From NCBI RefSeq assembly GCF_003018255.1, contig NZ_CP027440.1: DNA of 64,000 bases. The stretch is one strand, 5' to 3'. Positions within the stretch are counted from its first letter, which is position 1. Each line of letters begins with the position of its first letter. A program made the translations under genes and the position numbers. Source of the DNA: Escherichia coli. Its GTDB lineage: Bacteria > Pseudomonadota > Gammaproteobacteria > Enterobacterales > Enterobacteriaceae. Under the pieces are notes generated by a model. That model saw only the letters and a list, made by a program, of their open reading frames with translations. It was not told the DNA's origin and did not search any database. Shown here one piece after another: positions 11,455 to 13,814 of this stretch.

Positions 11455-11687
11455 AGCAAATATATTTTTTTACTTTTTAAGACTGATCCCAGCGTTGCGC
11501 AAATCTGCTCTCTTCGACAATTTCCACATAAACCATCGGTATAAACGAAACCGTAAAAATGAAATGCTGTTTTCATAAAAAATAAAATTGAAGGTTCATT
11601 TTATAAACCAGACATAACGTTCTACGCTTCTGTGCGTTTTTAATTTATGCTTTCATAGAATTATGTCTGCATCACGGGAAGAACAAA

Positions 11688-12521
11688 ATGGATAATGCTG
11701 TTGATCGCCACGTTTTTTATATTTCTGATGGTACGGCAATAACTGCGGAGGTATTAGGACACGCAGTAATGTCACAATTTCCCGTCACTATCAGCAGCAT
11801 TACGCTGCCGTTTGTCGAAAATGAGAGCCGTGCACGGGCAGTGAAGGATCAGATTGACGCAATTTATCACCAGACAGGTGTGCGCCCGCTGGTCTTCTAC
11901 TCCATCGTGTTGCCGGAGATTCGCGCCATCATCTTGCAAAGTGAGGGCTTTTGCCAGGATATCGTTCAGGCGCTGGTTGCCCCGCTACAACAAGAGATGA
12001 AACTGGATCCAACGCCGATTGCTCATCGTACCCATGGCCTTAACCCTAATAATCTCAATAAATATGATGCGCGCATTGCTGCGATTGATTACACCCTCGC
12101 CCACGATGATGGCATTTCGTTACGCAATCTGGACCAGGCTCAGGTGATCCTGCTCGGCGTTTCTCGCTGTGGTAAAACCCCCACCAGTCTGTATCTGGCA
12201 ATGCAGTTTGGTATCCGCGCGGCAAACTACCCCTTTATTGCCGACGATATGGATAATCTTGTGCTACCCGCGTCGCTCAAACCGCTTCAGCATAAATTGT
12301 TCGGCCTGACTATCGACCCGGAACGTCTGGCGGCGATTCGCGAGGAACGTCGGGAGAACAGTCGCTATGCCTCGCTTCGTCAGTGCAGGATGGAAGTCGC
12401 GGAAGTGGAAGCGTTGTACCGTAAAAATCAGATCCCGTGGATTAACAGTACCAATTATTCGGTAGAAGAGATTGCCACCAAGATCCTCGATATCATGGGC
12501 CTTAGCCGTCGAATGTACTAG
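11688..12521 (+). CDS. ppsR: PEP synthase regulatory protein (bifunctional kinase/pyrophosphorylase)
   Basis: 277-aa ORF divergent from ppsA; P-loop GVSRCGKT in the translation. Confidence 0.95.
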
Positions 12522-12532
12522 AGAACTAGTGC
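12515..12532 (+). promoter_or_regulatory. TrpR operator of the aroH promoter
   Basis: gtactagagaactagtgc is a near-palindromic match to the TrpR box (G-ACTAG-N-CTAGT-C); followed by a tatcat -10-like hexamer near 12551. Confidence 0.8.
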
Positions 12533-12677
12533 ATTAGCTTGTTTTTTTGTTATCATGCTAACCACCCGGCGAGGTGTGACACACCTCGCACTTGAAATCA
12601 GCTGCGATTGGTTTATCGTGATGCGCATCACTTCCCGGTAGTCCTGCCGTAGAAGCAACAAATTTCTGAGACTTGTA

Positions 12678-13724
12678 ATGAACAGAACTGACGAACTCCG
12701 TACTGCGCGTATTGAGAGCCTGGTAACGCCCGCCGAACTCGCGCTACGGTATCCCGTAACGCCTGGCGTCGCCACCCATGTCACCGACTCCCGCCGCAGA
12801 ATTGAAAAAATACTGAATGGTGAAGATAAGCGACTGTTGGTCATTATTGGCCCCTGCTCGATCCACGATCTCACCGCTGCAATGGAGTACGCCACCCGTC
12901 TGCAGTCGCTGCGCAACCAGTACCAGTCACGGCTGGAAATCGTAATGCGCACCTATTTTGAAAAACCACGAACTGTTGTCGGCTGGAAAGGGCTAATCTC
13001 CGATCCAGATTTAAACGGCAGCTATCGGGTAAATCACGGTCTGGAGCTGGCGCGCAAATTACTTTTACAGGTAAATGAGCTGGGCGTCCCTACCGCGACT
13101 GAGTTCCTCGATATGGTGACCGGTCAGTTTATTGCTGATTTAATCAGTTGGGGCGCGATTGGCGCACGTACTACCGAAAGTCAGATCCACCGTGAAATGG
13201 CTTCGGCACTCTCCTGTCCGGTAGGTTTTAAAAATGGTACCGATGGCAACACGCGGATTGCCGTGGATGCTATCCGCGCAGCCCGCGCCAGCCATATGTT
13301 CCTCTCGCCAGACAAAAATGGTCAGATGACCATCTATCAGACCAGCGGCAACCCGTATGGCCACATTATTATGCGTGGCGGCAAAAAACCGAATTATCAT
13401 GCCGATGATATCGCCGCAGCCTGCGATACGCTGCACGAGTTTGATTTACCTGAACATCTGGTGGTGGATTTCAGCCACGGTAACTGCCAGAAGCAGCACC
13501 GACGCCAGTTAGAAGTTTGTGAGGATATTTGTCAGCAAATCCGCAATGGATCTACGGCGATTGCTGGAATTATGGCGGAAAGTTTCCTGCGCGAAGGAAC
13601 GCAAAAAATCGTCGGCGGTCAGCCGCTCACTTACGGTCAATCCATTACCGACCCGTGTCTGGGCTGGGAAGATACCGAACGCCTGGTCGAAAAACTCGCC
13701 TCTGCGGTAGATACTCGCTTCTGA
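12678..13724 (+). CDS. aroH: 3-deoxy-D-arabino-heptulosonate-7-phosphate synthase, Trp-sensitive
   Basis: 348-aa ORF; translation recognised as class I DAHP synthase. Confidence 0.97.
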   Translation: MNRTDELRTARIESLVTPAELALRYPVTPGVATHVTDSRRRIEKILNGEDKRLLVIIGPCSIHDLTAAMEYATRLQSLRNQYQSRLEIVMRTYFEKPRTVVGWKGLISDPDLNGSYRVNHGLELARKLLLQVNELGVPTATEFLDMVTGQFIADLISWGAIGARTTESQIHREMASALSCPVGFKNGTDGNTRIAVDAIRAARASHMFLSPDKNGQMTIYQTSGNPYGHIIMRGGKKPNYHADDIAAACDTLHEFDLPEHLVVDFSHGNCQKQHRRQLEVCEDICQQIRNGSTAIAGIMAESFLREGTQKIVGGQPLTYGQSITDPCLGWEDTERLVEKLASAVDTRF

Positions 13725-13729
13725 ATGCG

Positions 13730-13758
13730 TGCCCATTCCTGACGGGATGGGCATTTCT
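13730..13758 (+). terminator. Candidate aroH terminator hairpin
   Basis: gcccattcc / ggatgggc imperfect stem directly after the aroH stop, followed by atttct. Confidence 0.4.
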
Positions 13759-13814
13759 GCGCAACTTGTTGTCTTCTCAACAAATTACTGCTTGCTCTGG
13801 CCCGCCATAATATT

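Follow-up and report, generated by a model that had tools for sequence, protein, structure and literature searches.

The end of ppsR and the aroH operator in Escherichia coli and other Enterobacteriaceae

Introduction

Where a gene ends inside the repressor site of the gene that follows it, two questions arise: is the coding end constrained by the site, and does transcription of the first gene disturb repression of the second? The ppsR-aroH locus of Escherichia coli raises both. The TrpR regulon consists of trpLEDCBA, trpR, aroH, mtr and aroL, and an initial annotation of a stretch of E. coli DNA of 64,000 nucleotides (contig NZ_CP027440.1, called the window here; coordinates are those of the window unless MG1655 is named) had placed a TrpR operator for aroH across the stop codon of ppsR. 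The aroH operator and its regulation are already known, and the position relative to ppsR is readable from any annotated E. coli genome. The present analysis adds the conservation of the overlap, a likely double constraint on the last ppsR codon and the stop, and a likely origin of the overlap by co-option, all of them drawn from comparison of sequences.

The locus and its operator

The genes and the site under discussion are the following.

11688..12521, plus strand: ppsR coding sequence, 277 aa, ending ...RRMY, with the TAG stop at 12519-12521 (list of open reading frames, E. coli annotation).
12678..13724, plus strand: aroH coding sequence, 348 aa, the tryptophan-sensitive DAHP synthase (list of open reading frames, annotation).
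12515..12532, no strand assigned: very probable TrpR operator of aroH (GTACTAG-AGAA-CTAGTGC), its left half made of Tyr codon bases and the ppsR TAG (sequence, consensus match, conservation).
12512..12535, no strand assigned: extended 24-bp palindrome round the operator, AATGTACTAG....CTAGTGCATT, with 9/10 Watson-Crick complementary positions.

In MG1655, ppsR (formerly named ydiA) lies at 1787445-1788278 and aroH at 1788435-1789481, and MG1655 coordinates are converted to those of the window by a constant offset of 1775757. Of 5,426 complete E. coli genomes, 5,423 contain the region from 11600 to 13800, and several chromosomes of the species match it at 100% identity. Inside ppsR, the Term-seq tables of Adams (2021) place a strong 3' end of an antisense RNA, at window 11891 on the minus strand (MG1655 1787648).

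The 18 bp at 12515-12532 are an exact match to GTACTAGAGAACTAGTGC / gtactagagaactagtgc. Four of these nucleotides precede the ppsR stop, three form it and 11 follow it. The arms GTACTAG and CTAGTGC are complementary at 6 of 7 positions, and the two CTAG boxes (12518-21 and 12526-29) are 8 bp apart, which fits an E. coli-type TrpR operator. When both strands of the window were searched with the trp-operator consensus GTACTAGTTAACTAGTAC, allowing up to three mismatches, the only match was at 12515-12532; 0.01 was expected by chance, and one of 100 shuffled sequences gave a match. Two of the three mismatches between GTACTAGAGAACTAGTGC and GTACTAGTTAACTAGTAC lie in the non-contacted centre. The gene downstream, aroH, belongs to tryptophan and aromatic amino-acid metabolism, as fits a TrpR target.

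The 18-bp site, the 24-bp palindrome and the -10 element of the aroH promoter P1 are the same in K-12 MG1655 and in five other E. coli chosen for divergence, with the palindrome unvarying in six E. coli genomes. Nearby SNPs in this comparison are confined to synonymous ppsR positions and to the P1 promoter spacer; a few SNPs, at the same two kinds of site, separate the window strain from K-12. Set against the aroH operator of K-12, the window site has no difference of substance: the 18 bp, the 24-bp palindrome, the ppsR stop, the P1 -10, the genes, the 156-nt gap between them and the annotation are all shared. Repression of aroH by TrpR is well established; a comparative-regulon paper repeats it and limits the link to a few close Enterobacteriales, and a RegulonDB-derived network lists TrpR as the sole input for aroH. 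An Rfam search of 12400-12800 returned nothing at E <= 1.

Taken as a whole, this evidence is best explained if 12515-12532 is the classical TrpR site controlling promoter P1 of aroH, and there is little doubt that it is. The initial annotation had described a near-palindrome that straddles the ppsR TAG, starting 4 nt before it and extending 11 nt past it, and had named it the TrpR operator of aroH. The description is exact by coordinates, and the name is borne out by identity with the 18 bp of the K-12 operator and by the unique consensus match.

Promoters of aroH

Published start-site maps and the sequence itself place two promoters in the spacer between the genes.

12563..12563, plus strand: aroH P1 transcription start (SMRT-Cappable-seq b1704 TSS, MG1655 1788320, an aroH-only transcript).
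12548..12556, plus strand: aroH P1 extended -10, TGT + TATCAT, with the hexamer at 12551-12556 (read from the sequence).
12592..12619, plus strand: aroH P2 promoter, TTGAAA, 16-nt spacer, TATCGT (the sole promoter-like match of a consensus scan).
12626..12627, plus strand: aroH P2 transcription start (SMRT-Cappable-seq, MG1655 1788383, aroH-only, and the TSS of Kim 2012).

A TAnnnT hexamer about 18 nt past the operator is kept across Enterobacteriaceae. In the window this hexamer is TATCAT, preceded by TGT, which makes P1 an extended -10 promoter. The P1 start mapped at 12563 is 7 nt past the end of TGT-TATCAT; this position comes from a single dataset and may be off by a few nucleotides, the mapped base being a C. 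The -35 zone of P1, at 12527-12533, falls within the right operator arm. The operator thus spans -48 to -31 of P1, over a weak -35 zone, and overlaps the sigma-70 core. This placement agrees with the classical description: work attributed to Zurawski in 1981, to Grove and Gunsalus and to Kumamoto in 1987, and to Klig in 1988 is said to have footprinted the aroH operator and located it over the -35 region.

The P2 start is 63 nt downstream of the P1 start and outside the operator. In M9-glucose, TSS profiling (Kim 2012) found one start for aroH, at window 12627, which is 51 nt upstream of the ATG and has 414 reads. Since P2 is outside the operator and is the only aroH start listed under these conditions, the operator controls only part of aroH transcription, and P1 with its operator may carry a minor share of expression. 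TrpR can act directly on P1 only. The Cappable-seq supplements of Ettwiller (2016) hold zero entries for the ppsR-aroH region. Control of aroH by two promoters is the subject, by its title, of Hudson, Rellos & Davidson (1991, Gene 102:87), and the two starts at 12563 and 12626/7 fit that title and may be the P1 and P2 of that paper.

Two earlier statements can be refined with this map. The operator and promoter of aroH had been described as partly inside ppsR. This holds for the left half of the operator; the core P1 elements (12527-12533 and 12548-12556) lie past the stop. The initial annotation had also made its reading depend on where aroH transcription starts. Public data give a start at 12563, relative to which the operator occupies -48 to -31, and they also contain the second start at 12626/7, which had been overlooked.

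From this geometry a simple mechanism can be proposed. A tryptophan-bound TrpR dimer would sit on both CTAG boxes, from -48 to -31 of P1, and with the weak -35 of P1 inside the right arm, bound TrpR would bar RNA polymerase. The left arm is supplied by the last bases of ppsR, the Tyr TAC and the stop TAG, so that the same seven bases end PpsR and form half of the repressor site. With P2 outside the operator, TrpR would trim aroH expression without shutting it off fully. Transcripts from the weak ppsR promoter pass through the operator into aroH.

Transcription of ppsR and read-through into aroH

Transcription also enters the operator from upstream.

11657..11657, plus strand: ppsR transcription start, origin of the ppsR-aroH co-transcript (SMRT-Cappable-seq TSS for the operon of b1703 and b1704, MG1655 1787414).

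Read-through from ppsR into aroH, which the initial annotation had supposed, is real: the co-transcript of b1703 and b1704 is recorded by SMRT-Cappable-seq, where this two-gene operon is classed as 'novel' (Yan 2018, Supplementary Data 2). Starting at 11657, it crosses the operator, which is therefore inside a transcribed unit and downstream of an active promoter. For ppsR a single transcriptional context is given in M9 and in rich medium alike, and the only operon listed that contains ppsR is the co-transcript; these counts are qualitative and suggest that the co-transcript occurs in both media. The long-read libraries were size-selected at >1 kb, so that ppsR-only RNAs are depleted, and a single read was enough for a RegulonDB operon to be called 'extended'. 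For these reasons the long-read data are silent on how much ppsR transcription stops before aroH, and the single ppsR context was set aside as evidence against termination because RNAs of less than 1 kb were excluded from the libraries. The ppsR starts of Kim (2012) are 25 and 30 nt before the ATG, one of them with 7 reads. The Term-seq tables of Adams (2021) contain no plus-strand 3' end near the site (MG1655 17882xx-17883xx).

Could this read-through alter repression? Polymerases coming from ppsR might sweep TrpR off the operator or occlude P1, and the activity of ppsR would then modulate repression of aroH, as the initial annotation had suggested. The co-transcript must indeed cross both the operator and P1, and tandem promoters with this geometry can interfere with one another. 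The arrangement shares with known cases of occlusion a weak upstream promoter that reads through a regulated downstream one, here ppsR and aroH P1; it differs in the great weakness of the upstream promoter relative to those downstream. With 7 reads at a ppsR start against 414 at P2, passage of polymerase would be rare relative to TrpR rebinding, and P2, being downstream, would be unaffected by eviction of TrpR. Interference of this kind as a main feature of the locus is accordingly unlikely. An effect of ppsR read-through on aroH repression is possible and is probably minor, the small size being expected from those read counts.

The encounter could also act in the opposite direction, with TrpR as the obstacle. 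Polymerase from the ppsR promoter would stall before the stop codon, and high tryptophan would cut read-through and give stop-less ppsR mRNAs whose product is tagged by tmRNA and degraded. The operator does lie within the ppsR-aroH transcribed unit, and the geometry is such that stalling at the edge of the operator would leave an mRNA whose 3' end is upstream of 12519 and which has no stop codon. There are precedents, LacI and CcpA/cre, in which truncated mRNAs lead to trans-translation, as reviewed in the literature. In the lacI/lac O3 and CcpA-cre systems (Abo 2000; Fujihara 2002), as here, a repressor site for a downstream promoter lies in or on the 3' coding end of an upstream gene within a transcribed unit; lac O3 itself lies in lacI. 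Truncation and tagging were demonstrated there; for ppsR-aroH they are predicted from the geometry, and co-transcript contexts are on record for both M9 and rich medium. The lac case differs further in that the upstream gene encodes the repressor itself, unlike ppsR.

Several observations speak against such a block. If the single ppsR context is the co-transcript, read-through would persist, as far as qualitative counts can tell, when TrpR should be active. The Term-seq tables lack the corresponding plus-strand 3' end, with the proviso that ppsR is weakly expressed (7 reads at one start) and that the long-read libraries were selected above 1 kb. The weakness of ppsR transcription itself also speaks against a block. 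TrpR is a small, fast-dissociating repressor and a poor candidate for a roadblock. A block by TrpR is thus quite unlikely, and the further step, a connection between tryptophan supply and the regulator of PEP synthase by way of stop-less ppsR mRNA and tmRNA-tagged PpsR, is a speculative one to which we give very little credence.

Conservation within the Enterobacteriaceae

A scan for PpsR, with one genome per species, gave 80 Enterobacteriaceae loci in which PpsR identity is 90-100%. An aroH match is found downstream on the same strand in all 80. In 76 of the 80 species the first base of the best operator-like 18-mer lies exactly 4 nt upstream of the ppsR stop, and these 76 loci share the register ATG-TAC-TAR + NNNN-CTAGTAC. 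Among their ppsR stops are 62 TAA and 14 TAG, and no TGA. In the right arm CTAG is invariant and the next T is present in 75/76. The final Tyr codon is TAC in every one of the 76 operator-bearing loci; the other third-codon positions among the last ten ppsR codons all vary, with entropies of 0.93-1.86 bits.

Four loci are exceptions to the register. Two of them (L033 and L040) have insertions between the genes, of 0.2 and 1.5 kb; in both the operator has remained on the aroH side, about 156 nt upstream of its ATG, and still reads GTACTAA. Another (L070) has a complete operator 20 nt past the ppsR stop. In the fourth (L036) PpsR is one residue longer and the left arm is degraded. The final Tyr codon is TAT in L033, where the overlap is lost, and in L036; as would be expected, this fits a lifted constraint on that codon.

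The stop type and the right arm vary together. The consensus right arm AGTAC occurs in 0/14 of the TAG-stop loci versus 53/62 of those with TAA (columns stop +2 and stop +12). Nearly every operator has exactly one arm mismatch, and there are no perfect palindromes among the 76. The co-variation could reflect selection for intermediate operator strength or shared ancestry, and shared ancestry confounds the pattern.

Two variants of the spacer can be described here. In Kosakonia sacchari the 1.5-kb insertion (L040, 3335-4786) between the ppsR stop and the aroH operator contains, on the opposite strand, two small ORFs rich in glycine, whose N-termini resemble double-glycine leaders (MKELTAHEMQYASGG... 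and MKQLSNDEMQAVSGAG...) and which have a microcin-like look; Pfam gave no match for either ORF. In the Citrobacter freundii group (L007-L013, L016) the ppsR-aroH spacer is 30 nt shorter (125-126 nt). It is without the TTGAAATCAG block of the P2 -35 and without the GC-rich hairpin described below; the operator, the P1 -10 and the GTGAT-N4-ATCAC palindrome are all retained.

Loci beyond the core family and the origin of the overlap

The operator is also carried by Klebsiella and Shimwellia, and in Shimwellia the ppsR stop is TGA. Further out, the ppsA<-ppsR->aroH arrangement is kept in all eight of the genera compared, namely Yersinia, Serratia, Edaphovirga, Dickeya, Affinibrenneria, Erwinia, Pantoea and Mixta. 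The operator is absent from all eight of these Enterobacterales loci, where the best 18-mers score 7-10 of 14. PpsR ends in RRMF or RRLF in Yersinia, Serratia and Edaphovirga, and in RRMY or RSMY in Dickeya, Affinibrenneria, Erwinia, Pantoea and Mixta. Five of these operator-less ppsR ends already contain a good left half-site: ATGTACTGA in Pantoea and Mixta, ATGTACTAG in Affinibrenneria, and ATGTATTAA in Erwinia and Dickeya. NCBI files the operator-less Edaphovirga under Enterobacteriaceae, and with this placement the operator boundary is not cleanly that of the family.

The P2 promoter has a different distribution. The P2 block, TTGAAaTCA...TGGTTTATyGTGAT-N4-ATCACTTCCCGG, is kept in nearly all aligned Enterobacterales loci. 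P2 is recognisable in seven of the eight operator-less relatives, Dickeya being the exception, and in the Citrobacter freundii group the -35 part is gone. Over P2 and the first part of the leader (window 12592-12660; L082-L087 and L092-L095), TTGAAaTCA...TGGTTTATyGTGAT-N4-ATCACTTCCCGGTAnTCCTGCCG is conserved far more widely than the operator.

It may be asked whether the operator merely abuts ppsR, in a neutral juxtaposition that has left the coding sequence unshaped. Met-Tyr/Phe-stop ends do occur in operator-less relatives, so that PpsR itself needed no change to accommodate the site. Against this, the Tyr codon ends in C in all 76 operator-bearing loci while every neighbouring synonymous site varies, and TAT appears where the overlap was lost or the left arm degraded. 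The TGA stop, too, is found in 0/76 of these loci compared with 4/8 of the operator-less relatives. Mere chance is an improbable account of these restrictions, and a double constraint on the codon and the stop is the preferred one.

How the constraint could have arisen is suggested by the distribution of the parts. The ppsA<-ppsR->aroH order, the Met-Tyr/Phe-stop end of PpsR and P2 would be the older, Enterobacterales-wide features. On the simplest reading, the comparison suggests that P2 is the ancestral aroH promoter and that the operator and P1 were added later, in the ancestor of the core Enterobacteriaceae. The sequence ATG-TAC-TAA would have been a near-perfect left half-site, so that only the right half (CTAGTAC) and a -10 element were needed. 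It is fairly likely that the Met-Tyr-stop end of ppsR was co-opted in this ancestor as a ready-made left half-operator, which would since have fixed TAC and kept TAA or TAG; the comparison behind this scenario comprises eight outgroup loci, and its statistics are computed without a tree over species that are not phylogenetically independent.

Other elements of the ppsR-aroH spacer

Two further elements are found between the operator and aroH.

12569..12589, plus strand: GC-rich hairpin with perfect 10-nt arms, GCGAGGTGTG-A-CACACCTCGC, within the leader of P1 transcripts and immediately before the P2 -35.
12618..12631, no strand assigned: palindrome GTGATGC/GCATCAC on the P2 start, with perfect 7-nt arms.

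The hairpin at 12569-12589 folds with -15.6 kcal/mol (z = -3.4). Its stem sequence differs among Escherichia/Salmonella, Enterobacter/Lelliottia and Leclercia/Silvania, and the structure is kept. Terminator-like hairpins are present at the equivalent position in Erwinia and Serratia. The hairpin may mark the real 3' end of ppsR, or it may stabilise the 5' end of P1 transcripts.

The GTGAT-N4-ATCAC motif is kept in most aligned Enterobacterales loci, including most of the operator-less ones. The GTGATGC/GCATCAC palindrome resembles the CRP core. For the palindromes at 12575-12590 and 12617-12632 a CRP site was considered; such matches are not enriched in the window (16 occurrences with <=2 mismatches, 26 expected), so the resemblance by itself is no proof.

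The operator palindrome might itself double, with the T-run that follows (12512-12548), as an intrinsic terminator of ppsR. As RNA, 12512-12535 forms a 10-pair stem (9 Watson-Crick pairs and one G-U; -10.3 kcal/mol, z = -5.6), and a simple scan calls the stem and the AGCTTGTTTT after it terminator-like; but the stem is A+U-rich, with 3 G-C pairs of 10, the T-run begins 4-5 nt past it, the Term-seq tables of Adams (2021) have no 3' end there, full-length ppsR-aroH transcripts exist, and any 3' end of ppsR would be better accounted for by the GC-rich hairpin at 12569-12589, the stronger of the two. All this makes a terminator at the operator palindrome highly improbable. In other species the two requisites separate: loci of the Salmonella type have the T-run with a hairpin of merely -1 to -2 kcal/mol, and in most genera no stretch of 8 nt contains more than 5 T. 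Over 75 loci hairpin strength and T-run do not co-occur, and a conserved palindrome terminator was rejected.

Significance

As a discovery the site has little weight. The overlap is conserved across the family, yet the regulation is ordinary and already described, that of a textbook TrpR site. There is a practical caution for genome engineering: the aroH operator would be altered or displaced if the ppsR TAG became TAA, the change made when amber codons are replaced genome-wide, if the final Tyr codon were edited, or if PpsR received a C-terminal tag. For the biology of the family, the end of ppsR and the operator of aroH offer a clean example of double constraint, in which bases that end a coding sequence also form half of a repressor site. 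They also illustrate how a regulatory link may be gained cheaply where a coding sequence already resembles half of a binding site.
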